This document shows, piece after piece, positions 1 to 64,000 of a stretch of DNA of 64,000 nt. The stretch's first letter is position 1. Each line of letters starts with the position of its first letter. Below the pieces are notes generated by a model. The model searched no databases. It was given only the letters and a program-made list of their open reading frames with translations, and had not been told where the DNA came from. The translations under genes and the position numbers were made by a program. The stretch is from contig NC_086108.1 in assembly GCF_963921235.1 (NCBI RefSeq), forward strand, positions 47,494,001 through 47,558,000, given 5' to 3'. The DNA is from Mobula hypostoma. Lineage: Eukaryota.

Positions 1-420
1 TCAAGCTGAGACCCTGCGTCAGGACTGAGAGGGTAAAGGAACAATGGCTTGTAGAGAGGTGCAGCGGAGAGGTGGGACAGGAGCTGGTAGGTGATGGGTG
101 GAACCAGGAGGTGGCAGAGGGCAATGAAGGGCAGATGGAGCCAGGTTGGGGGAGTGATGGAGGTGGGTGGTAAAGGAGAACAAAGAGAGAACCTGGGAGG
201 ACTAGTGAGAGGAAGAAAGGAATATTGAATTTTCCAACTTCAGGTAACCAACCCTTCATCTGCCCCGTCCCACCCCTACCCCACACTTCCATATACAAGC
301 CATCTTTTCTCTTTTCCCCCTCTAGTCCCAATAGAGAAGCTCATTCTGAAAAGTCGACATGTTCCCTCTGCTTCCACAGATGCTGCTTGACCTGCAGTGT
401 TGTGGATGCTTGCTTTCTTG
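1..420. mobile_element. Penelope-like element terminal remnants in opposite orientations
   Basis: Minus strand 1-30 reads tctcagtcCTGACGcagggtctcagc (pLTR/hammerhead-like), followed by a purine-rich tract. A degenerate plus-strand pLTR lies at about 320-420 (gaaaagtcgac...cacagatgctgcttgacctg). Confidence 0.6.
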
Positions 421-669
421 TTGTCATCTTTCTAATACTTCATCCTCTTCAGCTTCTCATTTTGTTCTGCCTGACTGCTCATCACTTTCCCTGGGCCGCA
501 GTGCCCCGAGGTACCGCCTGATCTAGCCACCCATGAATGCTAAGAGCCTCACACACCCTGCCCACAACTGTGCACGAGAAAGTATCTGTTAATTATGATT
601 CTAGTCTGACTGTTTTATTTTAATTTATCTACTCATACTGAATAATTCCAACTTTTTTTTTAAAATAAG

Positions 670-9956: not shown

Positions 9957-10201
9957 CACACGAGGAAATCTACTGATGCTGGAATTTCAAGTAACACACA
10001 TAAAAATTTCTGGTGAACGCAACAGGCCAGGCAGCATCTCTAGGAAGAGGTACAGTCGACGTTTCGGGCTGAGACCCTTACGAGATCTCTTACTAACTCT
10101 TCTTTCAGTTAGTCCTGACGAAGAATCTTGGCCCGAGACGTCGACTGTACCTCTTCCTAGAGATGCTGCCTGGCCTGCTGCGTTCACCAGCAACTTTTAT
10201 G
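9957..10201. mobile_element. Head-to-head Penelope pLTR pair with hammerhead-like core
   Basis: Imperfect inverted repeat (about 10000-10079 vs about 10120-10201). Plus-strand agtc-CTGACGA(10115-10121)...GAGAC-GTC-gact. Confidence 0.8.
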
Positions 10202-17339: not shown

Positions 17340-20300
17340 TTTCTTTCTTTCTTTTTAAATCTTTTTATTGAGTAAGTATACAAAAAAGGTAAGCCATATA
17401 AACATTAATACAATGTTAAAGTATAATAAAATTCCAAAAGATAACAATACCAAAAAGAAAATACTACAAACAATGTAATTTAAGCATAAGAAACCAAGAT
17501 AACATAATAGTATACTAAATTTTATATATATCAATGGAAAAAAAAAGAAAAAAAAACCCCAAAAAAAAAACCCACCGTGCAACTAACTAAAAGCAAAGCA
17601 AAGCAATGGGCTAACTTGAAACCAAACAGAGTTAAACTTAAAATCACGTCCTCAATCCCGACCTCCATTAAAACAGTGAAGAAAAAACAAGAAGGGTAAA
17701 TATTACATTAAATGAAAATATCGAATAAAAGGTCCCCAAATCTGTTCAAATTTAAATGAAGAATCATAAAGGTTACTTCTAATTTTCTCCAGATTCAAAC
17801 ATAAAATCGTCTGAGAAAACCAAAAAAAGGTAGTTGGAGCATTAAGCTCTTTCCAATGTTGTAAAATACATCTTTTCGCCATTAAAGTAAGAAATGCAAT
17901 CATTCTACGGGCTGAAGGGGAAAGATTACTAGAAATTTTAGGTAGTCCAAAGATAGCAGTAATAGGGTGAGGAGAGATATCTATATTTAATACCTTAGAA
18001 ATAATATTGAAAATATCTCTCCAAAAAGTTTCCAAAGTAGGGCAAGACCAAAACATATGAGTTAAAGAGGCTATCTGCCCCGAACATCTATCACAGAAAG
18101 GATTAATATGCGAGTAAAAACGCGCTAACTTATCTTTGGACATATGTGCTCTATGAACCACTTTAAATTGAATTAGGGAATGTTTAGCACAAATAGAGGA
18201 AGTATTAACTAATTGTAAAATCTGCCCCCAATCATCCACAGAAATGGTAAGCCCCAATTCCTGTTCCCAATCTACCCTAATCTTATCAAATGGAGCTTTC
18301 CTAAGTTTCATAATAATATTATAAATCATAGCCGATGCACCTTTCTGACATGGATTAAGGTTAATTATCGAATCTAAAATATATATAGGAGGAAGCATTG
18401 GAAAGGAAGTAAGTATAGTACTTAGGAAATTTCTAACTTGTAAATATCTAAAAAAATGTATTCTTGATAAGTTATATTTATTAGATAATTGTTCAAAAGA
18501 CATAAGGGAACCATCTAAAAATAAATCCAAAAACCGTAAAATACCCTTAGTCTTCCAAGTTTGAAAAGCGCGATCCGTAAAAGAGGGAGGAAAAAATATG
18601 TTACCTAAAATAGGAATCGCTAACCCGAATTGATTAAGATCAAAAAATTTTCTGAATTGAAACCAAATGCGCAAAGCATATTTAACTATCGGGTTAGAGA
18701 CCTGCTTAAGACGTTTCGAATCAAAAGGAAGAGAGGAACCTAAAATAGAACCAAGTGTATAACCCTGAACAGATTGTAATTCCAATGCTACCCATTTAGG
18801 AATAAATAGTATGTCCCGGTCAAGTAACCAAAATTTCATATGTCGAATATTAATAGCCCAATAATAAAATCTAAAGTTAGGTAATGCTAAACCTCCATCT
18901 CTCTTAGCTTTCTGTAAATGTATTTTACCCAGTCTCGGATTCTTGTTCTGCCAAATAAATGAAGAAATTTTAGAGTCAACTTTATCAAAAAAAGATTTAG
19001 GAACGAAAATTGGTAATGCCTGAAACACATATAAAAATTTTGGCAAAAAAAACATCTTAACTGCATTAATACGACCAATCAAAGTTAAATATAAGGGAAA
19101 CCATTTAGATGAAAGTTGAGTAATATGGTCTATTAATGGTAAAAAGTTAGTCTTAAATAAATCTTTATGTTTACAAGTAATTTTAATCCCAAGATATGAA
19201 AAGTAATTATTAATCAATTTAAATGGAAATTTATAATATAAGGGAAGATGTTTATTAATCGGAAAAAGTTCACTCTTACTAAGATTTAATTTATAACCTG
19301 AGAAAAGACCAAATTGTGCTAATAACTCTAAAACAGCAGGAATGGATCTCTCAGGATTAGAAATATATAAAAGTAAATCATCAGCATAGAGTGATAATTT
19401 ATGGGACTTTAATCCCTGAGTTATCCCAGTAATATTTAAAGATTCTCGAATAGCAATTGCAAGAGGTTCTAATGCAATATCAAATAATAGGGGACTAAGA
19501 GGACAGCCTTGTCGAGTACCACGAAAGAGAGGAAAAAAAGGTGAGTTTAAGGAGTTAGTACGAACCGAGGCTACAGGGGAGTAATATAACAGTTTAATCC
19601 AGGATATAAATTTCAAGCTAAAATTAAACATTTCAAGCACCTTAAATAAATAAGGCCATTCTACTCTATCAAAAGCTTTCTCGGCATCTAAAGAAATAAC
19701 ACACTCAGGAACATTTTGTGAGGGAGTATAAACGATATTTAACAATGTACGAATATTATAAAAAGAGTAACGACCTTTAATAAAACCCGTTTGGTCTTCC
19801 GAAATAATAGAAGGAAGTACTTTTTCTAGTCTATTTGCTAATAACTTAGAAAAAACTTTAGAATCAACATTTAATAAAGATATTGGTCTATAAGATGCAC
19901 ATTGAGCAGGGTCTTTATCCTTCTTTAGTATTAAAGAAATTGATGCTCTATTAAAAGATTCCGGAAGTTTACCAAGTTTCAAAGAAGCCTCAAAAACCTT
20001 ATAGAGCCAAGGAATCAATAAAGAAGCAAAACATTTATAAAATTCAACGGTAAACCCATCAGGGCCAGGAGCTTTCCCCAGATTCATAGAAAAAATAACA
20101 TTCTTAATCTCATCCATTGTAATGGAAGTATCTAATAAAGAAGACATATCCTGTGAAATCAGAGGGAAGTCTAACTTATCTAAAAAATCATTCATATATT
20201 TAGAATCTCGAGGAGACTCTGATTGGTATAAAGAAGAATAAAAATCACAAAAGGTTTGATTAATCCCCACATGATCCAATATCAATCGATCATTTTGGTT

Positions 20301-21425
20301 ATAAATCTGATTGATTTGAGATTTAACATAATTAGATTTCAATTGATTAGCCAGCAGCTTGCCAATTTTATCACTGTGAACATAAAAATCACTTCTTGTT
20401 TTCTTTAATTGGTTTACAATCGAGGACGAGAGTAGTAAACTGTGTTCCATTTGAAGTTCAGTTCTTTGTTTGTATAGCTCCTCAGAAGGAGCCATAACAT
20501 ATTTCTTATCAATTTCTTTAATCTTGTCCACAATTACCATCTCCTCCTGCTTCTGTTTCTTCCTCAAAGCAACGGAATACGAAATAATCTGACCCCGAAT
20601 ATAGGCTTTAAAAGTGTCCCAAAGAGTGTTAACCGAAATATCTTCTGTATGGTTAATTGTAAAAAAAAGCTCAATCTGTTCATTCATAAAATTAACAAAG
20701 TCCGAGTCCTGAAGCAACAGCGAATTAAAACGCCATTGTCTATTGTTTGGTATATTGGCCATAATTTTAATAGAAAGCTTAAGTGGAGCATGATCCGAAA
20801 TGGTTATAGAATCATAATCACATTTAATCACTGAAGGAATGAGACGAGAATCAATGAAAAAATAATCAATTCTTGAATAGGAATGATGAACATGTGAAAA
20901 GAAGGAAAAATCTTTTTCCTGAGGATGCAGAAAACGCCAAATGTCCGTCGACCCAGAATCAGAAAGGAAAAAATTAATCAAATTTGCAGATTTATTAGGT
21001 AAAGTCCGTAAAGGAGCCGAACGGTCCAAAGCTGGAGATAAACAGGTATTAAGATCTCCGCCCCAAATCAATGAAAACTCGTTCAAATTCGGAAACTGAT
21101 CAAACAATGATTTATAAAATTCCGGACAATCCATATTAGGAGCATAAACATTAACCAAAACTACTTTTTTATTAAATAATAAACCACTAACCAATAAAAA
21201 TCTACCATTCGGATCAGAGATAATATCCTGTTGTATAAAAGTAACTGAGGAGTCTATAAAAATAGAGACGCCTCGAATCTTAGCATTGGAGTTCGAATGA
21301 AATTGTTGTCCCTTCCAAAATTTGAAAAAACGTAGTCTGTCCCCCCTCCGTACATGGGTCTCTTGTAAAAATAAAATTTGTGCTTTAAGTCTCCGGAACA
21401 CTTTAAAAACTTTTTTCCTTTTAAT
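17340..21425 (-). mobile_element. L1-clade LINE, 5'-truncated and very young, within an RNF2 intron (antisense)
   Basis: Perfect 14-bp TSD AGGTTTGTACCCTT at 17326-17339 and 21426-21439. 3' AATAAA plus an A/GAAA tail at about 17340-17370. The target reads TT/AAGG on the element strand. Confidence 0.95.
17703..21425 (-). CDS. L1 ORF2 (APE endonuclease, reverse transcriptase, C-terminal CCHC), open but missing its N-terminus
   Basis: Uninterrupted frame of more than 1230 codons with motifs LQETH, NVYAP, GGDLN, SRIDY, SDH (APE); KAPGPDG, YRPISLLN, LDAEKAFD, RQGCPLSP, LYADD (RT); CDRC...HMFWSC. Starts at IKRKKVFK directly after the TSD, with no ATG or WN motif. Confidence 0.93.
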   Translation of the reverse strand: MKRKKVFKVFRRLKAQILFLQETHVRRGDRLRFFKFWKGQQFHSNSNAKIRGVSIFIDSSVTFIQQDIISDPNGRFLLVSGLLFNKKVVLVNVYAPNMDCPEFYKSLFDQFPNLNEFSLIWGGDLNTCLSPALDRSAPLRTLPNKSANLINFFLSDSGSTDIWRFLHPQEKDFSFFSHVHHSYSRIDYFFIDSRLIPSVIKCDYDSITISDHAPLKLSIKIMANIPNNRQWRFNSLLLQDSDFVNFMNEQIELFFTINHTEDISVNTLWDTFKAYIRGQIISYSVALRKKQKQEEMVIVDKIKEIDKKYVMAPSEELYKQRTELQMEHSLLLSSSIVNQLKKTRSDFYVHSDKIGKLLANQLKSNYVKSQINQIYNQNDRLILDHVGINQTFCDFYSSLYQSESPRDSKYMNDFLDKLDFPLISQDMSSLLDTSITMDEIKNVIFSMNLGKAPGPDGFTVEFYKCFASLLIPWLYKVFEASLKLGKLPESFNRASISLILKKDKDPAQCASYRPISLLNVDSKVFSKLLANRLEKVLPSIISEDQTGFIKGRYSFYNIRTLLNIVYTPSQNVPECVISLDAEKAFDRVEWPYLFKVLEMFNFSLKFISWIKLLYYSPVASVRTNSLNSPFFPLFRGTRQGCPLSPLLFDIALEPLAIAIRESLNITGITQGLKSHKLSLYADDLLLYISNPERSIPAVLELLAQFGLFSGYKLNLSKSELFPINKHLPLYYKFPFKLINNYFSYLGIKITCKHKDLFKTNFLPLIDHITQLSSKWFPLYLTLIGRINAVKMFFLPKFLYVFQALPIFVPKSFFDKVDSKISSFIWQNKNPRLGKIHLQKAKRDGGLALPNFRFYYWAINIRHMKFWLLDRDILFIPKWVALELQSVQGYTLGSILGSSLPFDSKRLKQVSNPIVKYALRIWFQFRKFFDLNQFGLAIPILGNIFFPPSFTDRAFQTWKTKGILRFLDLFLDGSLMSFEQLSNKYNLSRIHFFRYLQVRNFLSTILTSFPMLPPIYILDSIINLNPCQKGASAMIYNIIMKLRKAPFDKIRVDWEQELGLTISVDDWGQILQLVNTSSICAKHSLIQFKVVHRAHMSKDKLARFYSHINPFCDRCSGQIASLTHMFWSCPTLETFWRDIFNIISKVLNIDISPHPITAIFGLPKISSNLSPSARRMIAFLTLMAKRCILQHWKELNAPTTFFWFSQTILCLNLEKIRSNLYDSSFKFEQIWGPFIRYFHLM

Positions 21426-22795
21426 AGGTTTGTACCCTTAATGCTGAGTCTACAACTGTCTGCAGCCTCTTGCACATCCTTGCATTGGAACATCAAATCA
21501 TTTAGAATGCTCTCCAGAGTACATTTGCTAGAGTATTTGGTAACATAAGTCTCTTCAAACTCCTAATGAAGTGTAGCTGCTTGTGCCCCTCTTTGGTGAT
21601 TGCATCAATATGTTAGGCCCTGAATATATCCTCTGAGATGATTGTGTGCAGAAACTTGAAGCTGCTCGCTCTTTCCAATGGTTGACCCCTCACTGAGGAC
21701 TGGTGTGTTCTCCTGACTTCCCGTTCCCGAAGTCCACAATCAGTTCCTTGGTCTTGCTGACATTGAGTGCAACGTTGTTGTTGTGACACCACTCAACCAG
21801 CTGATCTCTCTCACTCCTGTCTGCCTCCCTGTCACCATCTGAGATTTTGCCAACAGCAGTGGTGTCATCAGCGAATTTATAGATGGCATTTGAGCTGTGT
21901 CGAGCCACGCAAAGGGTGTAGAAAGTAGAGCAACTTGCTAAGCGTGCGTCATTGAGTTGAGTCTGTGTTGATTGTCTGCGAGGAGATGTTACTACTAATC
22001 TGCACTGACTGTGATCTCCTGATCTGGAAGTCAGGGATCCAGTTGCAAAGGGAAGTACAGAGGTCCAGGTCTTGAAGCTTGTTGATTAACACTGAGGGGC
22101 TGACGGGTGTTGATCGCTGTACTGTAACCAATGGACAGCAGCCCGATGTGGGTATTGCTGTTGTCTAGGTGGTCCAAGGCTGGGCGGAGAGTGAGGGAGA
22201 TTGCGTCCGCTGTGGACCTGTTGTGGTGGTAGGCAAACTGCAGCGGGTTCAGGACCTGCTGTAGGAGTTAATTCTAGCCATAATCAACCTCGCAAAGTAC
22301 TTCCATCACAGTAGAAGTGAGTGCTGTCAGGCGATAGTCACAGAGGCAGCTCGTTCTGCTCAGGTTTTTCAGTACCTGCCAGGTACACCATCAGAGCCTG
22401 AGGACTTGTAAGGGTTTGCCCTCTTGGAGGAAGTTCTGAATTCTTCCTGTGAGACAACGATCACAGGACCACCGGGTGCTATGGAGATTTGCACAGTTGT
22501 AGTTTTACTCTCCGTTTCAAACAGCACATAAAAGGTGTTGAGCTTATCGGGGAGTGAAGTGTTGCAGCCAGTTAGGTTTTGCCTTGTAGGAAGTAGTGCC
22601 TGCAAACCCTGCCACAACTGTCATGCATCAGATTGTCACCTGCCCTCAATGTTGCCGAGACTAGGCACTCTGGTTGAAATGTAAGGTAGTGGAACCAGTG
22701 TTACAGTTAGCTTTCATAACTAACATTTGGAATTTGAGGTAGTGAGGGTGCACATTTCATTTCTCCTATTTTTTTTCTTTGTTTGGTTTAAAAAG

Positions 22796-25689: not shown

Positions 25690-26860
25690 TGAACATGAGA
25701 GATTCTGCAGATGCTGGAAATGCAGAGCAACACACACAAAATGCTGGACGAATTCAGCAGCTCGGACAGCATTTTTATGGAAAAGAATACAGAATTAATG
25801 TTTTGGTCTGAGACCTTTCAGGACTGGAAAGGGATGGGGAAGAAGCCAGAGCAAGAGGGTGGGGGGAGGGGAATGAGTACAAGCCAGAAGGTAATGGGTG
25901 AAGTGAGGTAAGGAGGAAGATAGGTGGGTAGGGGAGGGGGTACAAAGTGAGAAGCTGGGAGGTGATGGCGGAAAAGGTGAAGGGCTGAAGGAGGATCGTA
26001 TCTGATAGGAGAGGAGAATGAACCATAGGGGAAAGGAGGGGCATCAGAGGGAGGTGATAGGCAGGTGAGGAGAAAAGAAGGGGTAAGGGAAAAGCTGGAA
26101 TGGAAAATGAGAGCATGGGGAGGGTGGAGAAATTACCAAAAGTTCAAGAAATCGATGTTCATGCCATCAGGTTGGAGGCAACCCAGATGGAATTAGATGT
26201 TTTGCCTCATCGTGGCAATGGAGAAGGCCATGGACCAACAAGTTGGAATGGAAATGGGCAGTGGAATTAAAACGGTTGGTCACTGAGAAATCCTATTTGT
26301 TGCAGGCGGTGCAAATGTGCTTGACAGAACGATCCTTCAATCCGCTTAGTGTCTCACTGATTAGAGGAGGCCACACCAGGAGCACCAGATACAGTAGATA
26401 ACCCCAACCCCAACGTGGGTGAAGTGTTGCCTCAGCTAGAAGGACTGGGGGCTCTAAATGGTGGTGAGGGAGGAAGTGAATAAGCAGGTGTACTTCCGCT
26501 TGCATGGATAAGTGCCAAAAGGGAGATTCGTGGGGAGGGGTGGATGCAGAAAGTGGGGAAGAGGCAAAGATATGTTTGGTGGTAGGATCCTGTTGAAGAT
26601 GGCAGAAATTGTGGAGAGTGACGTGCAGGATTCGTAAGTTCATGGTATGGTAGGTAAGGGCAAGAGGAACTCTACCCCTGTTAAGCTGGTGGGAAGATGA
26701 GGTATGAGGGTGGTGTCCAGAAAATAGAGGAGATGCGGGTGAGGGCACCATAACCAGTAGTGGAAGGGAAACCCCGTTCTTTGAAGGAGGATGTTCTGGA
26801 AAGGAAAGCTTCATTATGTGGCAGAGACAGGGGAACTGAGAAAAGGAAATGACTTTGGGT
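25690..26860 (-). mobile_element. Penelope-like element 3' portion (GIY-YIG remnant and pLTR)
   Basis: pLTR ctgcagatgctggaaat...gagaccttt caggactgg, a purine-rich tract, and RVPLALTYH...HLQQDPTTKHIF remnants. Confidence 0.8.
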
Positions 26861-36530: not shown

Positions 36531-37685
36531 TTTTAAATCAATATCACAAGGCGATGGGAACTGGAGTTCCCATCTGAGGATGGGACAGTTGGTACTTAAG
36601 TAGAGAGATTGTGAAGAAGGACAGGCAGAAGGTAAGGCAAAACTGATGATTGGGATGAGTTGAAGTGGCAAAATTGAAACAGGCGATGAATACAGGACTA
36701 AAGGTGTTACATTTGAATGAACGTAGTATACAGAATAAGGAAATGTCTTGTAGTGCAGTTAGAGATTGGCAAGCATGATGCTGTGGGCATCACTGTGTTG
36801 TGGCTGAAAGAGGATTGTAGATAGGATCTTAACGTCCAAGGATTGTATCAAGAGGACAGGCAGGTAGGCAGAGGAGGTGGGGTGGCTCTGTTGGTAAAAA
36901 ATTAAAATCATAACCTTAGAAAGAGACGACATAGGATTGGAAGATGTAGAATCTTTGTGGGTAGAGTTAAGAAACTGCAAGGGTAAAAAGACTCTATTGG
37001 GAGTTATATACAGGCCCCAAACTGTAGCCAGGATGTGGGATACAAGTAGCAATGGGAGATAGAAAAAGCATGTAAAAGGGGCAATGGGGAATTTCAGTAT
37101 GCCTCTGAGATGGCTTTTTTGAGCAGCATGTGCTTGAACCCACTAGGTGAAAGGCAGTTCTGGATTGGGTGTTAAGCTATGAACCAGAGTTGGTTAGGGA
37201 GCTTAAGGTAAAGGAACCCTTAGGGACCAGTGATCATAATATAATAGAATTCACTCTATGGGTTGAGAGGGAGCAGATAAAGTCAGATGTATCAGTATTA
37301 TATTGGAGTAACAGGAATTTCAGAAGCATGAGAAAGCAGCTGGTCAAAGTTGATTGAAGGGGACACCAGCAGGGATGATGACAGCACAGCAATGGCTGGA
37401 GTTTCTGCGGACAACTTCGAAGAATTCTGAGGGAGGATGAGAGAACTTTGGCTGATAGGGACGTCAATGACAGCATAAAGGCAAAAGAGGGGGCTTATAA
37501 TATAACAAAAATTAGTGGGAAATTAGAGGGATTGGAAAGCTTTTAAAAACTAACAGAAGGCAACTAAAAACATACGGAGAAAAAAGATAAAATACGAAGT
37601 TAAGGTAACCAATAATATAAAAGCAGATAGTTACATTTTTTCAGATATATAAAGAGTAAAGGATAGGCGAGAGTGGATATTAGAC

Positions 37686-38450
37686 ACTCACAACACACTG
37701 GAGGAACTCAGCAGGTTGGGCAGCATCCGTGGAAACAATCTGTCAATGTTTCGGGCCGGAACCCTTCGTCAGGACCGTAGAGGGAAGGGGCAGAGGCCCT
37801 ATAAAGAAGGTGGGGGGAGGGTGGGAAGGAGAAGGCTGGTAGGTTCCAGGTGAAAAACCAGTAAGGGGAAAGATAAAGGGGTGGGGGAGGGGAAGCAGGG
37901 AGGAGATAGTCAGGAAAGGTGAAGAAGGAATAGGGAAAAGCACAATGGGTAGTAAAAGGAGGCAGAACCATGAGGGAGGTAGTAGGCAGCTGGGGGAGGG
38001 GGCAGAGTGAAACTGGGATAGGGGAAGTGAGGGGGAGGGAATTACCAGAAGTTGGAGAATTCAATGTTCATACCAAGGGGCTGGAGACATCCCAGATGGT
38101 ATATGAGGTGTTGCTACTCCAACCTGAGTTTAGCCTCATCATGGCAATAGAGGAGGCCATGTATGGACATATCCAAATGGGAATGTGAAGCAGAGTTGAA
38201 GTGGGTGGCAACCGGGAGATCCTGTCTGTTGTGGCCGACGGAGTGGAGGTGCTCAACGAAGAGGTCCTCCAATCTGCGTCGGGTTTCACCTTCTTTATAG
38301 GGTCTCTGCCCCTTCCCTCTTCAGTCCTGATGAAGGGTTCCAGCCGGAAACGTTGACTGATCGTTTCCACGGATGCTGCCCAACCTGTTGAGTTCCTTCA
38401 GCGTGTTGTGAGTGTCGCTTTGACCCCAGCATCTGTAGTGTATTTTGTGT
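37686..38450. mobile_element. Penelope-like insertion: truncated minus-strand body plus inverted pLTR, with two hammerhead cores
   Basis: Perfect 14-bp TSD AGTGGATATTAGAC at 37672-37685 and 38451-38464, interrupting a CR1. GIY-YIG C-terminal remnant at about 38050-38290. Confidence 0.9.
38321..38360 (+). ncRNA. Minimal type I hammerhead ribozyme motif
   Basis: Stem I TCAGTC/GACTGA, core CTGATGA (38327-38333), short stem II, GAAAC (38347-38351), GTT triplet. Confidence 0.7.
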
Positions 38451-39612
38451 AGTGGATATTAGACCATGGGAAAATGATGCTGGAGAATTTGTATTGGGGT
38501 AAAAGAAATGGCAGATGAACTTCATAAGTATTTTGTGTCAATCTTCACCGTGGAAGACACTAGCATTATGCTAGATATTTCAGAGTATCGGGGGGCAGAA
38601 GTGAGTGTAGTTACTATTACTAAGGAGAAGGTGCTTGGGAAGTTGAAAGCCTGAAACGTAGATGTCACCTGGACCAAATGGACTACACCGCAGGGTTCTG
38701 AAAGAAGTAGCAGAAGAGATTGTGGAGACATTAGTCATGATCTTTCAGGAATCACTAGATTCTGAAATGGTTCTGGAGGACTGAAAAATTGCAAATGTCA
38801 ATCCACTTTTTATGAAGGGAAGTAGGCGGAAGAAAGGAATTTATAGGCCTGACTTCAATGGTTGGGAAGATGTTGGGGTCCTTTATTAAGCATGAGGCTT
38901 TGGGATGCTTGGAGGCACATGACAAATAAGGCAAAGTCAGCATGGTTTCCTTAAGGGGAAATCTGGCCTGGCAAATCTTCCGGAATTTCTTAGAGGCAAT
39001 AACAGGCAGGATAGACAAATGAGAGTCAGTGGATGTTGTTTATTTGGATTTTCAGAAGCCCTTTGACAAGGTGCCGCACCTGAGACTAATTAACAAAAGA
39101 GCCATAGTATTACAGGGAAGATACTAGCAAGGATAGAAGATTGGTTGACTGGCAGGAGGCAAAAATTGGGAAGAAAAGGGGCCTATTATGGATGGCTGCC
39201 TATGACTAGTGGTGTTCTACAGGGGTCAGTGTTAGGAGTGCTTCTTTTTTACGTTATATATCAATGATTTGGATGATGGAATTGATGGCTTTGTGACCAG
39301 GTTTGCAGATGATATGAAAATAGTTGGAAGAGCAGACAGTGTTGAGGAAGAATGGAATCTGCAGAAGAACTGCAGATGTTTTAGAGAATGGGTAAAGAAG
39401 TGTCAGATGGAAGACAGTGAAGGGAAGTGTATGGTCATACACTTTGGTAGAAGGAATAAAGCCATACACTGCTCTTTAAATGAGAAGAAAATTCAAAAAT
39501 CAGAGGTCCAAATCGAATTGGGAGTTCTTGTGCAGGACTCACTAATGGTTAACTTGCAGGTTGAGTTGTGGTAAAGAAGGCAAATGTAATGTTAGCGTTC
39601 ATTTCAAGAAGA

Positions 39613-42497: not shown

Positions 42498-42887
42498 CAG
42501 AAGCAGCCTCAGACCCCCACATTCAATAATTTACAGTCTGTTTTGTTGCTTTGAAAGAAGTTGGACAACTGCACTGAAACTGCACTGCACAACATACAGT
42601 ATATGACCTTTTTCCACAGTGCAAGATAGTGTTCAGAGATTTCTTTCTGCAACCAAAAGATTTGATATGATTTTTTGAACCTCAGCTTCGGCTCAAAGTT
42701 ATTTTGTAGTGAGATTATTTCTTCATCCATCCTTCCTGTTATTTCAATATTACAAGTGTTCAGGAATGGCTTTATTACCTGAACTGCAATTTGGATCAAG
42801 AGATGTTCCTGAAATCTCGTTGACATACATTTACGCAGCTCACCCAGGTTTTCACTGAGTGACTGAAAATAAGGAAAGTTATTGCTT

Positions 42888-43110
42888 CACAACAGGAATT
42901 CTGCAGATGCTGGAAATTCAAACAACACACATCAAAGTTGCTGGTGAACGCAGCAGGCCAGGCAGCATCTGTAGGAAGAGGTGCAGTCGACGTTTCAGGC
43001 CGAGACCCTTCGAAGGGTCCTGACGAAGGGTCTCGGCCTGAAACGTCGACTGCACCTCTTCCTACAGATGCTGCCTGGCCTGCTGCGTTCACCAGCAACT
43101 TTGATGTGTC
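42888..43110. mobile_element. 223-bp Penelope pLTR-derived foldback insertion with hammerhead core
   Basis: 12-bp TSD AAGTTATTGCTT at 42876-42887 and 43111-43122. Perfect 86-bp inverted repeat at 42927-43012 / 43024-43109. Confidence 0.9.
43016..43051 (+). ncRNA. Minimal type I hammerhead ribozyme motif
   Basis: GGTC-CTGACGA(43020-43026)-AGG gtctcgg CCT-GAAAC(43040-43044)-GTC-GACT, with a palindromic ACGT stem III. Confidence 0.75.
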
Positions 43111-46100
43111 AAGTTATTGCTTGCTTTATCAGAGTGTATTCTCTTCAAATGTTCAAGGAGCCTGGGTGGTTTCATTGCCTCATTTAACAAAATCCTTTTT
43201 AACACAACTGACACATCGGCTACTTGCTGCCGGTATATGTAAATCTATTTTTTAGATACTCCACACAAAATTGTTTACACTTCTCTTTTGTTTGGTCTGC
43301 TTCTCCCATTTTCATTACGGATTAACAACTATGATCAATCACCTATTGCTCGTGCACTGCGATCAATAAAGGGGAATGTTATAGCTCAGGCAAAGCCAGG
43401 CTCTCTGCCTGAAGGTGCAGCGATATCTCAGTTGGGCAATGGACTAGAGAAATGCAGTCAAAACCATTTGAAAGCACAGATTCTGAACCTTACCCTATGA
43501 ACACCATACCCTAATTCACCGTAATTGCATTTCTCTGTGACAAGAGTATGGGAATTGTACTAGCTAACACCGCACTACAGTAATGAATGGTAATAATGTG
43601 CAAGCTGGACCTAAAATAATGTGGTTCTTTCAGTCAAGATTTCTCATGATGTGCCAAATACAGAAGTGCTATGTTTGCTTTTAAACAACTATAACGTGCT
43701 TCGAGCACAGTCTGAGAGAATGGTGGGTTAGCGAGAGACGAGGTGACTGCATAATCATTGTCATTAATTATGAGGCACTGAGGACCAAATGGTTATAATA
43801 AGCAATTCGTTTCTTACATTAAGCCATAATCCCTCAGCTGCCCCCTTGCTACCAAGCGCCCCCACCACCCCCTAAGAAATTGCCCCCAGGCGGGCGATGT
43901 TGCCCACTTTGGGAACCGCTGCCCTAAAGATAAACTTGCAGATTGAGTAGGTAGTAAAGAGAGCAAATGCAATGTTAGCATTCATTTCAAAAGGTCTAGA
44001 ATATAAAAAGCAAGGATGTAATTCAGAGGGTTTATAAAGTCTTGTTTAGATCATATTTGGAGTATTGAGAGTAGTTTTGGGCTTCATATCTAAGAAAGAA
44101 CATGCTGACATTGGAGAGGGTCCAAAGGAGGTTTACGATAATGATCCTGGGAATGAAAGGCTTAACATACGAGGAGCATTTGACAGCTCAGAGCCTTTAC
44201 TCACTCAAATTTAGAAGAAGGAGGGTGGGGGGGGTGTGGAATTTCATTGAAACCTATTGAATACTGAAAGGCCTAAATAGAGTAGACATGGAGAGGATGT
44301 TTTCAATAGTGGGTGAGTCCAGTACCAAAGGACACAGCCTCAGAATAGAAGGACTTCCCCTAAGAAAAGAGATGAGGAAGAACATCTTTAGCCTGAGGGT
44401 GGCAAGTCTGTGGAATTCACTGCTACAGATGGCCATGGAGGCTAAATAACTGGGTACACTTAAAGTGAAGGTTAATAGGTTCCTGATTGGTAAAGGGATC
44501 AAAAAGTCATGGGGAGAAGGCAGGATAATGAGGCTGAGAGGAAAATACGCCAGCCATGATTGAATGGTGGAGCAGAGTGGCCCAGTTCCATTGCTATGTC
44601 TTATGGTTTTATGGACCCAGAAGCTGAAGAATGAAATTCAAAATGTAATTGTGTTTTCACAGTTTTCACATTTGCTTCTTCTCTTTTGTGTATAGGAACT
44701 GGGATATTCACCGATGAGCAACATTACACTTATATACTGCAGTCACTGAATATCTGCACAAATGTGACTGATGTGTTGTTAAGCATCCTGGCAGGACATC
44801 AGTGGCCTGAACTCAGTTCCACATGGAGCCAATTCTTCTCTTTAATGACTGGATGGGTTTTCTTGGATGTCTGGGGTAGATACAACCTAGCTCCACAGGT
44901 CTGCATTGGGAAACTATCCCAAAATTGGCTCCAAGTGATCATTTTGTTCAAATAGGAAATACTAACAGCAACAATGACAGGAATGTTGGGATGAAATGGA
45001 AGCAGCTTAAGTCTACTCTGGGATTGTGTGACTGGACAGTGCAAAGGGAACTTCATCCCACTTTTTTTATATAAAAAAGGGTTATTTACGGCCGTGTAGC
45101 CTCAGTTGTAGTGAGAATTAGGCCTCAAGCCTTGGGCTTGCCTGCTGCTGCAGGGCAGGTGAGCGAGATGGAAGTGCTACAGCATGGTTGAGCTCGGCTG
45201 GGGCCTAACCACGTCTGTAAGTGCTGCCCTCCAGTGTTTGAGTGGTGGAATGACAGGCTGGATTACGTGCGTCTGTACACTGCCAGGAGACTGTGCTATT
45301 GATTGCTGGACATTGTTGCTCAGGGCCTTGGACTATATATTTTTTTTCTGAGAGAATATGCATCTTTGCTCTATATTTTGAATTATGTTACTCACCATTT
45401 TTGAATGTTTGCTCCCTATTTTGAATGTTTCGCACCTTGGTCCCAGCGGAACGCTGCTTCTATGAATGGTTTGAATGATAATTAAACGATTTGATTTAAA
45501 TCTTTATTATATTATTTGAATAGTTAATGATACTCAGCATGTTGGGAAAGGCAGCCCAAGCCACAAAGTAAAGTATTTTCTAATTTTGCCTGGTATCATT
45601 GTAAGAAGAGACATTCATCTTCCCTGCTGTGACAAATAAACCATCCATCACCAGTATTAGGCCCTTTTGGTCTGCTCTGTGGGAGCACCTGTAAATACCT
45701 GTGGCAGAACCCTTGAAGGGAAGGTAGTGCTGACTTTGTCTAGCACTGGTGGTAAGTGACCACAAATTCAATTCGGCATTACATTTAAAAGGTTATAAAT
45801 ATTAGCCAGTATCAGATTATAATAAGATTCTTTTTTGGTACAATATGAGACAAACATTTTACTGCACCCCTATACTGCTAATTTATAGATTAAACTACTT
45901 TCTTTGCAATGTGCAATTTTTTTTCAATTAGCCCTTCATCTAGAGCACTGACTTCATGGGCCAACATTTAAAATAATTTATATATGCTGACTGTCTCCCT
46001 CTGAGAAATATTCAAACTGGAGGATGCTTAGTGATCAAAAGCAACAGACAACAAATGGCTAAACTGTTAACTGTTCAGTCGTAGCCATAGAGTCTGCAGG

Positions 46101-46440
46101 AATAGCACCTGCCCCCTACTGCAGCAAGCTCAATTTTGCTGGGACCAAAGATGCAAAATTTCTTTGAAATTATTCTTCCAATACATTCATGCACAAGAAC
46201 AGACTCAACAAAGCACAACGAAGTTGAGTTTATTGTCATACACACAAGCACACAAATGCGTAGGTGCAATGTAAAATAGACACATAAGATCACCACTGAC
46301 AGGCTGTCAATGGCATTTTGTGCCACTTCTCCAGGATCTCCCTTGCTCAGCTTCAGAATGCTTGTAACTGTGAACTTCTGCACAAACCAAACTATCTTCC
46401 AGATTAACATTGGAGGCACCAAAGCTAATTACCAATGAAT

Positions 46441-46577
46441 TAATGGCCCGATGAAGGGTCTCGGCCTGAAACGTCGATTCTTTATTTCTTTCTATGGATT
46501 CGGTCTATCCTGCTGGGTTCCTCCAGCATTCTGTGTGTTTTACTCTGGATTTCCAGCATCTGCAGAATCTCTTGCGT
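46441..46577 (+). mobile_element. Solo 137-bp Penelope pLTR fragment starting at a mutated hammerhead core
   Basis: 12-bp TSD TTACCAATGAAT at 46429-46440 and 46578-46589. Reads cCGATGAagggtctcggcctGAAACGTCga...ccagcatctgcagaatctcttg. Confidence 0.85.
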
Positions 46578-47760
46578 TTACCAATGAATCTGCCCACTGA
46601 ATGCGTAGTCCGGATGGACCAAGTTGTAGATAAGCTCGTCTGCAACTTGGCTCTACTTGCATCTGTCCTTTGAAAACTGGCCACTGTAGACCCAGTGTAT
46701 CACAGTCTCCTCCTGTTTTTACCCTCCCAGTTTGTTATCAACCCACAATCACATCGAACTGCAGCTTCTCCGTAATTCTGCAGCTTGCACTTCAACCTGC
46801 AGTATACTTTGAAATACCAAACACCACTTCATCCTTGCTGATCCATCACTCCGCCATCCTCTGAGTCACCAGAATCTGTGAAAACTTAAATCCTTGCCTG
46901 TTTGGCTGGTCCCACCCCTCAACCTCATTCCCTAATTCCATCTTTCCTGGGTCCCACAATGCCACCCTTCCTTCCAATAGCTGATTCTTTTCCTAACTTC
47001 CTCCAGCTTCCAAGCTCTTTTTATAACCTCTCCTTTTGATCAAGCTGTTAAATCCAGATAGATGCACTACAGGAGTTCTGCTCAGCTTCCTGGCCTTTGG
47101 TTGTAGGCCTTCAATAGCCCACTCTCCACCTCATTACCTTCTTCTCCTGCAGCACTCTGGGGCAATTTCCTGCATTAAAGAATACTAACTAAGGCTACAA
47201 ACGTACTGTGCACTTGACGGTGGAGACAAACGTGCGATAAAACGGGAGGGCTAAGCTGACTTTGACAGCTACTGACGTTACATTAACACCACTGACAATA
47301 CATACATTATTGATAACCTTAATGATAACCAAGCCTTATCACAAACTCCCTGCAGTCAATACAGTTATTCTCATGCATTGACAATCGATCTACAATACTG
47401 TGTGTATATGTATATATCTCAATAAAGTTTGCCTTGTCGACTGCCACTACAATGAACATCAAAGATCAAAGGCACCATAAATACACAATAAATAGTTCTC
47501 AGCTGCAAGTATTTAACACCAAATCAGCAGACAAGAATGACTGCAGCACTGCATCTTTCAGAAGTTTAGCAACTGCTACCTACTGAGGCACACATAGCAC
47601 CTTGTGGTCAATCAGACACACTTTTTACAGCTAAGTGTTCAAAACATGAGATTTGGCTAACCACTGCTGTTCAATTGCAGAGAAGCACAAAACAATAATG
47701 CAGAACAACTTTATGGTAATTTCACTTTTACTCCATCATTTGGAATCATTTATTAATTGA

Positions 47761-47823
47761 ACTACTATATTGGAGTCATTCTTAATACCATTAAAGTATT
47801 AAGAATGACTCCAATGCAGTAGT
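47761..47823. repeat. 28-bp-arm hairpin (inverted duplication)
   Basis: Arms at 47761-47788 and 47796-47823 match at 26/28, with the inner 20 bp perfect; 7-nt loop CATTAAA. Confidence 0.9.
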
Positions 47824-48079
47824 CATTAAAGATTAGCTGAAGCTGCTTTACCTTTCCATAGTTATTCTGAAATTTTATAAACATTTTTGAAGTTGTACCT
47901 CATGGCAGATCCACAGGCCTCTGAATCCTGTGCCTTCTCAGTGTATGTACAACACATGAATGATTCATGAGCACACATTGAAAGGAACAATAAAACCACA
48001 GCTGTGCAAATCCTTACCACATCTGGTAACCCCGTGATCTCCGTCTTGGAGGCTGACAGAAGAAAATCTTTCAAAAGGG

Positions 48080-48159
48080 CTAAAATTGGATTGATACAGA
48101 GATTAGCATGGCCTCTTCCGAAGGATGACACACACACTTGTGAAGCAATCCATACTTCT
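48080..48159 (+). pseudogene. U6 snRNA pseudogene (5'-truncated, diverged)
   Basis: CTAAAATTGGAttGATACAGAG-ATTAGCATGGCCtCTtCcgAAGGATGACACaCAcAcTtGTGAAGCaaTCCATAcTT is colinear with U6 from about nt 25 to its 3' end, including the ACAGAG box and AGC triad. Confidence 0.9.
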
Positions 48160-62303: not shown

Positions 62304-62499
62304 AGGAAATGGAAGGATATGGACATTGTGCAGATAAACGGGATTAGGTTATCGGGTATTTAATTACTAGCTTAATTAGTTTGGCACAGTATATTGTTCT
62401 ATGTTTGATATCTTACATTTTATAATGACAGCCTTTCCAACCTCACAATTATAAATTGAAATAAAATTAATAAGTCACCATCTTGAATCTTATATATAT

Positions 62500-64000
62500 T
62501 TTGCAGTATTTGCCTTTTTGTTGGCTACATGGAAATGTCCAAGTTCCAAGCCTACAGTAATAACACTTCCCAACTCTTTCTCTGCTACACTGATGACGGC
62601 ATTGGTGCTATTTCATGCACCTATGCTGAGCTCGTCAATTTCATCAACTTCTACTTTGCCCTCAAATTTACTTGGTCCATCTCTAACACCTCTCTCCACT
62701 TTCCTGATTTCTTTGTATCCATCTCTGGAGAAAAATTAACCACCAATCTTTTTACAAACCCACTGAGACCCACAGTTACCCTGACTATACCTTATCCTAC
62801 CCGGTCACTTGTAAAAATGGTATTCCCTTCTCAGTTTCTTCACTGCCTCTGTTTCCATGATGACTCTTTCCATTCCATATCATCTGAGATGTTGTCTTCG
62901 AAATCAGAATCATGTGTGGTGAAATTTAACTTTATTCAGACAACAGGGTTTCCCTTCCACCAGTATTGATGCTGCCCTCAGCCATACCTCCTCCATTTCC
63001 TGCATGTCTGACCTCACCCCAGACACCCCCTCCCCAACTTTACAAGGATAGGGCTCCCCCCTTCCTCATCTACATCTCTTCAGGAGCCTTTGCAACCAAC
63101 ACATTATTCTCTGTGACATGCCATTCCCAATGGGATCCCACTACCAAGCACAATTCCCTACCCCACTCTCCGCAGGGATTTCTCTCTCCATGACTATTAG
63201 AAGAGGAGACCCTACAGACAGAGAATGCTTTAGTTATCATCTTTCAAAATTCTATAAATCCTGGAATGGTTCCTTCATATTGGAGGGTCGCTGACTTCTG
63301 TGAGAGGAAAAAATGAGTGAATGTAAGGGAAAAGAATGTGATATTCCAGGGACATAGGAAATAATAATACTGAGCAAAGACGACACAAACGATGACAGAG
63401 AAGTCACTTTGAGGATATATCCAGTGAAATAGGTGAGGGAAAAGTCAGTGGATGTGGAGAGTTTGACTTTTCAGAAGACTTGTCCAGAGGAAGCTGGTGA
63501 ACACAGATGGAAACTGAAACATTTAATATTTTGCAGGTCAATGGGACCAGGCAGATTAATAGCTTGGGATGGATCAGATGGGTTGATGGACCTGTACCTG
63601 TGCAGTAATGCTCTAGGACGATGACTCTGTAACCACTTAGTCCGCCCATCCTGCCCCAGCCTACTTCATCATCTGTCCATACTGATGGACACCTGCCTTT
63701 CCTGACACTTATCCCTGCAACCCAGCTAAGTGCTACACCTTCCCAGTGGCCACACATTTCAATTCCACTTCCCATGTCTGTCTATGGCCTCCTCTAGTGT
63801 TACAATGAGGCCAGACGCAGGTTGGAGGAGCAACTCCTCATATTCTGTCTTGGTTGTTTCCAGTGTGACACATGAACGTCATGAATTTTTCTAACTTCCA
63901 GTAATCGTTCCCCTCCGTTCCTCTCCCGCCCCCCACTGTTTTCTCTTATTCTTGTGGTTCTCTTACCCTTTCTCTTTGCCTCCCCTACCCTCATGACCTG
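62500..64000 (+). mobile_element. Penelope-like element remnants (RT C-terminal part and GIY-YIG end), interrupted by CR1 debris
   Basis: LFLCYTDDGIGA (RYIDD-like), LKFTWSIS..SLHFPD, QWDPTTKH; cagtggccacacatttcaattcc...ttggaggagcaac near 63740-63900. Confidence 0.75.

Follow-up and report, generated by a model that had tools for sequence, protein, structure and literature searches.

Within the 64,000-nt stretch of the Mobula hypostoma genome analysed here (the window), a short unit at 42888-43110 carries two inverted arms that match each other without a single difference. We asked whether this unit represents a mobile family of its own or the remains of one insertion, and by which route its two arms could have been formed. 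The original prediction had described it as a young 223-bp foldback element built from the ends of Penelope-like elements (PLEs), mobilised in trans and giving an RNA that could adopt either a long hairpin or a ribozyme fold.

The structural elements behind this description, namely the 12-bp target site duplication (TSD), the 86-bp mismatch-free arms, the CpGs, the 11-nt spacer, the 16-bp palindrome and the hammerhead core, were all found in place. The direct repeat at 42876-42887 and 43111-43122 was identical in 12/12 positions (chance at a fixed place 1.4e-7). The arms at 42927-43012 and 43024-43109 comprised 86 nt each, were 100% complementary, lay 11 nt apart and had kept 5 intact CpGs per arm, and a perfect palindrome of 16 bp was located at the inversion junction (43004-43019). 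On the plus strand the hammerhead core consisted of CUGACGA (43020-43026), GAAAC (43040-43044) and GUC (43045-43047), with the nominal cut after 43047.

For comparison with the family, public contigs from 4 of 24 runs (X1, X5, X9 and X13) were aligned to 42620-43400 (781 bp) at 90% likeness. Family homology of the right arm was thereby found to begin at 43017 and not at 43024, as seen in 339 contigs of run X1 with loose ends before 43017 and in another copy at 10112-10201. Since these loose ends run on into upstream sequence of the family, which is also present at 10100-10111, the 4 nt at 43013-43016 are the sole non-family bases of the insert. The two arms are thus asymmetric: a 39-nt tail occurs on the left arm only and the 7 nt at 43017-43023 on the right arm only. 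The locus is composed as follows.

42509 to 42874, minus strand: left part of the target, a hAT (FAM200/SCAND3-like) transposase remnant (Atlas: top three clusters 0.94, PF05699 on 24-53% of members).
42876 to 42887: left TSD of 12 bp, or of 13 bp with 42875 included as a mismatch.
42888 to 42926, minus strand: PLE tail of 39 nt, confined to the left arm, with an outer end that coincides with a terminus seen across the family (contig loose ends, alignment).
42927 to 43012, minus strand: left arm, a PLE 3' end (pLTR) that is 5'-truncated inside the hammerhead core and lacks CUGA.
43004 to 43019: junction palindrome, 16 bp, made up of the end of the left arm and a 7-nt templated copy thereof.
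43013 to 43016: the 4 non-family nt, flanked by the putative microhomologies CG (43011-43012) and GTC (43017-43019).
43017 to 43109, plus strand: right arm, which repeats the pLTR end of the left arm without the tail, extends 7 nt further on its 5' side and begins 3 nt ahead of the hammerhead core.
43016 to 43051, plus strand: minimal type I hammerhead motif with a helix I of 4 bp, the core, a bulged A and a helix II of 4 bp, without helix III.
43110 to 43122: right TSD, of which 43111-43122 are duplicated; C43110 is probably target.
43123 to 43244, minus strand: right part of the target, the same multi-copy hAT remnant (paralog pieces at 43110-43185).

The duplicated target probably measures 13 bp, position 42875 being its one mismatch, which leaves 42888-43109 as the insert, because contigs of hAT paralogs align from 43110 onwards, the C included, and the contig of a sister species diverges at 42875. 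When the insert and one TSD were left out, 166 stop-free codons were obtained in one frame, as compared to 33 and 52 in the remaining frames. This restored hAT frame confirmed a true insertion with target duplication, and the duplication claimed in the original prediction was thereby borne out. Pfam scans of both hAT halves flanking the insert gave no match. The hAT remnant itself (42509-43244, minus strand) seems to be internally deleted; paralog contigs are deep on 43110-43185 and scarce on 42836-42862, and the frame is open across.

The insertion is intergenic and lies between converging 3' ends, about 15 kb past the stop of RNF2 and 10 kb past that of a TRMT1L-like gene. The RNF2 exons are on the plus strand (22797-22970 matches RING2, E 2e-25; stop at about 27561). 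The last exon of the gene on the minus strand, which we take to be TRMT1L from synteny, matched Pfam TRM with an E-value of 3.6e-05, below the cut-off. Three further features of this region were recorded. An uninterrupted L1-like ORF2 of 1244 codons with endonuclease, RT and zf-RVT is situated in an RNF2 intron (17703-21437, minus strand) and is possibly a young LINE. A U6 snRNA-like copy with a decayed 5' stem (48060-48159, plus strand; 55.1 bits against a cut-off of 44) is probably a retro-pseudogene, and an imperfect AT-rich palindrome of 63 bp (47761-47823; 85.7% self-complementary) is unrelated to the PLE.

From which element the arms were derived could be read from the other copies in the window, where the unit matched six other places. 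The following copies and related PLE parts were distinguished.

9957 to 10201: second inverted copy, belonging to the family of the 42888-43110 unit, to which its tail arm is identical in 107/123 positions and its tail-less arm in 82/90.
37672 to 38464: third inverted copy, of a related subfamily, with a 14-bp TSD, the tail on the shorter arm and a junction microhomology of about 4 nt.
46429 to 46589, plus strand: solo truncated pLTR with tail and a 12-bp TSD, starting at the hammerhead core.
25690 to 26845, minus strand: longer, decayed PLE 3' part with thumb/linker, GIY-YIG, 3' UTR, decayed hammerhead and tail.
62487 to 63870, plus strand: decayed PLE RT and GIY-YIG fragments.

The longer arm of the third inverted copy reaches the GIY-YIG end of a PLE ORF: its arm at 37684-38290 passes into a frame that matches the C-terminal end of ray proteins with PF26215, a Cys-rich linker and GIY-YIG. 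Because the same kind of end continues into this frame, we identified the arms of 42888-43110 as the 3' end (pLTR) of an abundant endonuclease-positive PLE; the link from the arms to the ORF runs via the related subfamily (76% over 75 nt) and not the identical one. A PLE origin, as originally proposed, was upheld by this joined ORF and by the one-sided tail of 30-40 nt. In 4/5 ray proteins GIY-YIG scored 18.7-20.9 bits, below the Pfam cut-off of 22.6, and Pfam scans of the GIY-YIG remnants in the window gave no match. The RT remnant at 62487 was placed by Atlas (0.95; PF26215 on 29-70% of members, three clusters) and by tblastn with the ray proteins; protein searches with 62487-62966, plus Pfam, found no match. 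A CX2-5CxxC Cys-rich linker was present in 4/5 of the ray proteins fetched, and a decayed one at about 26500 in the window. Such a linker between RT and EN defines Neptune and is shared by Nematis (PMC8557442), and by this linker the ray family is termed Neptune-type. The best database relatives of the neighbouring retroelement fragment were from Hypanus sabinus and Mobula hypostoma (6/31 candidates passed). A further PLE 3' UTR with a decayed hammerhead (1-450, minus strand) is cut by the window start. Separately, the ray gene models P0001, P0003 and P0006 (kinase-domain, mucin-2 and LAMP3 isoforms) contain pieces of the PLE ORF, likely as annotation contamination.

The contigs also revealed where copies of the family end. 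In run X1, 61,869 contigs aligned to the 781 bp, so that the family must be very abundant. The summed depth of this run reached millions on the arms and 13-15 on the unique flanks; this is not a copy number, and a reading of summed contig depth as such was rejected. Loose ends with unrelated AT-rich flanks accumulated before 42889, in 244 contigs of X1 and 217 of X5, and also before 42923/42924, in 290/130 contigs of X1 and 328/122 of X5. We recognised these positions as two family-wide PLE termini about 35 nt apart, the tail and the tail-less end. Run X9, possibly RNA, gave no cover of the unique flanks of the insert. Searches for the exact junction pattern and for the family pattern in metagenome contigs returned 0 and 0, and the family pattern was likewise found 0 times in viral contigs; both outcomes are expected for vertebrate DNA and are uninformative.

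If the 223-bp unit were a non-autonomous foldback family copied whole in trans, its junction should recur. This reading, also in the specific form of a hairpin 'retro-MITE' of two PLE ends that bears the 4-nt insert as its mark and was spread in trans by the ray Neptune enzyme, is very unlikely in our judgement. In its favour, the unit is compact and has a TSD and both PLE termini, and mobilisation in trans needs no more than pLTR ends according to PMC3846280. The depth at 43013, an upper bound only, was 58,119 in X1, 19,395 in X5, 1,897 in X9 and 22 in X13, which is about 1% or less of the arm depth, yet far above single-copy (about 14), and some other joints had a depth of 90-190 in X1, several times single-copy, so that some junctions are multi-copy. 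Against it, no second copy of the 43013 junction occurs within the 64-kb window, the junctions of the 3/3 inverted copies in the window all differ, and among the 15 of 461 inversion joints listed from the run contigs all breakpoints differ from the 43013 junction. Furthermore, repair accounts for every base of the junction, no promoter is evident, and a perfect 86-bp stem would probably hide the RT start sites. That the excess depth at 43013 stems from short contig-end overhangs counted as aligned can only be argued. The idea of a mobilised non-coding family was thus not supported, and mobilisation in trans is unnecessary, since the element's own enzyme truncating a normal PLE transcript gives the same product. 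As a separate observation, the family joints 42957/43079 and 42970/43066 had a depth of 185-189 (>10x single copy) and are candidates for secondarily amplified stubs elsewhere in the genome.

The second part of the prediction concerned the hammerhead. Its core and helices were located by hand in the pLTR, so that the presence of the minimal motif was corroborated, and the Rfam search of the unit found no hammerhead match at either threshold; Rfam E-value matches to miRNA models (52 bits against a cut-off of 82, and lower) were rejected as generic hairpins. The complete core exists on the plus strand only, and the minus-strand copy is without CUGA, so there is no partner core in cis. Helix I has only 4 bp because the upstream strand of the family is missing. 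In computed folding of the whole unit, helices I and II had a pair probability of 0.0, and they formed only in fragments starting at 43013 or later (0.60-0.93). The fold in which the hammerhead was forced had -147.0 kcal/mol as compared to -195.3 kcal/mol for the hairpin, and with a gap of 48.3 kcal/mol a conformational switch between the two was rejected; the predicted choice of the RNA between hairpin and ribozyme was therefore not supported. In earlier studies, no activity was seen for a single minimal hammerhead and weak activity for dimers (PMC4209133), and the motif of the Anolis element Poseidon_Ac (PAc) needed protein (PMC11167929). We concluded from the modelled folds that the unit is unlikely to be a working ribozyme and that its motif is predicted to be buried in a long hairpin.

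How the two arms came to lie inverted is best considered from their ends. Each arm has sequence missing from the other, so neither is a fold-back copy of its partner and both were copied from the element. A simple fold-back of the cDNA was rejected, because the shorter arm carries 39 nt absent from the longer one. A template cut by its own hammerhead was also rejected: both arms extend through the cut site, and the RNA template was thus uncut. The tail sat on the shorter arm and the spacer formed part of the tail-less arm in 3/3 inverted copies of the window, a rule with n=3. TSDs of 12-14 bp were present in 3/4 of the short or inverted copies examined, and 4/9 PLE copy ends in the window stopped within 10 nt of the first base of the core, albeit in a small sample. 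In the second inverted copy (9957-10201) the arms were alike in 73/81 positions, the junction differed from that of 42888-43110 and no TSD >6 bp was detected; an 8-bp palindrome at its junction (10082-10089) is comparable to the 16-bp one at 43004-43019.

We favour, as the reasonably probable explanation, a single insertion event by the RT and GIY-YIG enzyme of a Neptune-type PLE, with dual priming and end-joined cDNAs. Staggered cuts 12-13 nt apart were made at an AT-rich site in the hAT remnant, as shown by the TSD and the restored frame. Each freed 3' end may then have primed reverse transcription on PLE RNA, one start being at the tail end and the other about 35-39 nt further in, which would yield two cDNAs of the same polarity. 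Both cDNAs, as seen in the arms, passed the hammerhead cut site and ended within the 5' half of the motif, at lengths of about 125 and 93 nt. Their 3' ends could finally have been united by synthesis-dependent end joining, with pairing at the self-complementary CG, synthesis of 7 nt, a slip and re-pairing at GTC; such joining would account for both the 4 additional nt and the palindrome of 16 bp. The junction is accounted for base by base in this way: CG closes the left arm, 43013-43019 repeats 43004-43010 in reverse complement, and with the last three bases of 43013-43019 the right arm begins. A slip with a templated insert is typical of polymerase-theta-type joining. The outcome would be a dead, one-off stub whose read-through transcript would fold as a long hairpin without self-cleavage.

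For the priming steps there is a precedent in vitro, and dual priming in vivo, like the joining pathway, is proposed here. The PLE protein studied in PMC11167929 cuts and extends both strands, acts on AT-rich targets and is predicted to be a dimer; two RT start sites bound the tail and hammerhead cleavage was not needed. The two family termini with AT-rich flanks match these start sites, and dual target-primed reverse transcription with subsequent end joining is the simplest reading.

The same one-off insertion could also have acquired its inversion by self-priming of antisense PLE RNA or of the first cDNA. The 3' end would fold back and prime a copy of the same molecule, whose ends would afterwards be resolved at the tail and the tail-less site. 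Such priming was proposed for palindromes at inverted junctions (PMC3846280), and both same-family copies have a junction palindrome (43004-43019 and 10082-10089). The one-sided 39 nt, however, are beyond a plain cDNA fold-back, the antisense-RNA version requires an extra, exact trimming step, and initiation on sense RNA at both sites and on both strands was seen in vitro (PMC11167929). We regard self-priming as unlikely.

The age of the insertion depends on what the perfect arms mean. Arm differences numbered 0/86 in 42888-43110, as compared to 8/81 in 9957-10201 and 12/130 in 37672-38464; the 0/86 bounds arm divergence at 3.4% only. In a related species (organism B, run X5) an orthologous contig with 3 differences in 245 nt ended its alignment at 42874 with 37 letters left over. 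The aligner would cross one mismatch if the insert were present, and a split to 43110 explains the stop, so that the site is quite likely empty in organism B; the empty-site joint of B was absent among the joints displayed, and 37 letters is also the overrun of A's contig past 42874. Flank divergence between the two species was 15/495, and the insertion is probably younger than this species split of about 3%. The predicted youth, relative to the other copies, was supported by the arm differences and by a sister species that probably does not have the insert.

Perfect arms would not mean youth if an older, longer inverted insertion had later lost its spacer by deletion at a cruciform and its arms had been homogenised by gene conversion. 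Two non-consensus letters do occur beyond the paired arms, at 42875 in the TSD and at 42922 in the tail (where 94% of X1 depth has G), and none in the 172 arm positions, and the 3.4% bound leaves room for such a history. But the letters common to both arms are common family states (e.g. 42971, 42983), the arm CpGs are intact at sites decayed in 13-16% of family depth, the other inverted copies in the window were not homogenised, and the contig of organism B indicates an empty site at this flank divergence. We consider homogenisation an improbable origin of the perfect arms.

An assembly artefact in the form of a fold-back chimera was also weighed. The inverted repeat is perfect, no aligned contig spans the whole unit, the contig at the left edge has 24 letters inside the element, below the 31-letter rule, and runs X1-X4 may be from the source sample. 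The TSD, the asymmetric tail and the restored target frame, on the other hand, are not products of fold-back chimeras; a contig of X1 (42750-42911) crosses the left edge without difference at a single-copy depth of 13.2, and runs X1-X4 contain 0.88-0.93 of the sampled words. An artefact is hardly credible.

Dual priming by a PLE enzyme invites comparison with L1 twin priming, in which the second target strand primes a second cDNA, the junction shows microhomology and the TSD is kept. The insertion at 42888-43110 resembles these inversions in the proposed second-strand priming, the junction microhomology and the retained TSD. The inverted part of an L1, however, comes from another segment further upstream, while the two cDNAs here are copies of one 3' end.

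Inverted pLTRs with a one-sided tail, a TSD and junction palindromes are typical of PLEs (PMC3846280, PMC8557442), and the same inverted architecture is stated in passing in PMC8969392. As in the endonuclease-positive PLEs described in PMC3846280 and PMC8557442, an inverted 5'-truncated copy lies beside a direct one, a tail of 30-40 nt is found on one end, and a TSD and a palindrome or microhomology at the inverted junction are present. Unlike in those elements, both copies are here cut to about 100 nt, leaving two pLTR ends only, and the TSDs are 12-14 bp instead of the 8-10 bp of the rotifer examples. The motif agrees with the minimal hammerheads of metazoan PLEs (PMC4209133) in its core, the extra base between 9 and 10.1, the missing helix III and the palindromic 15.2-16.2. 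It differs by a U at position 11.1, which gives G-U in place of G-C, by a helix II of 4 bp and by having one complete core, locked in a perfect hairpin; the same source reports dual opposite-strand motifs 100-700 bp apart, derived from truncated PLEs. With PAc of Anolis (PMC11167929) the ray family shares two tail-bounding termini, an AT-rich target, a dispensable hammerhead cleavage and the proposed use of both target strands, which PAc cuts and extends in vitro. PAc belongs to the Penelope/Poseidon clade, unlike the ray family with its Neptune-type Cys-rich linker.

Non-LTR retrozymes (bioRxiv 10.64898/2026.07.22.740005) are likewise short, non-coding, PLE-derived, equipped with a type I hammerhead and present in Chondrichthyes. 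They are head-to-tail tandems with at least 2 complete hammerheads, in contrast to the inverted pair with one complete core at 42888-43110, and this identity was rejected. A literature search that largely left subscription papers and supplements uncovered brought up neither a description of inverted PLE stubs from sharks or rays nor one of a non-autonomous foldback PLE. Repbase-like consensus files may describe the ray PLE family.

The unit is in all likelihood a known by-product of PLE integration and not a new element, its architecture having been published in PMC3846280, PMC8557442 and PMC4209133. As a single locus it is of little weight; at best, its presence or absence could serve as a marker for two related species. 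It is valuable as a clean specimen of how PLE inverted ends are formed, a question for which self-priming was proposed in 2013 (PMC3846280) and two start sites with extension of both strands were described in vitro in 2024 (PMC11167929). Since the family is abundant, genome-wide arm lengths, the side of the tail and the junction inserts could tell dual priming from self-priming.
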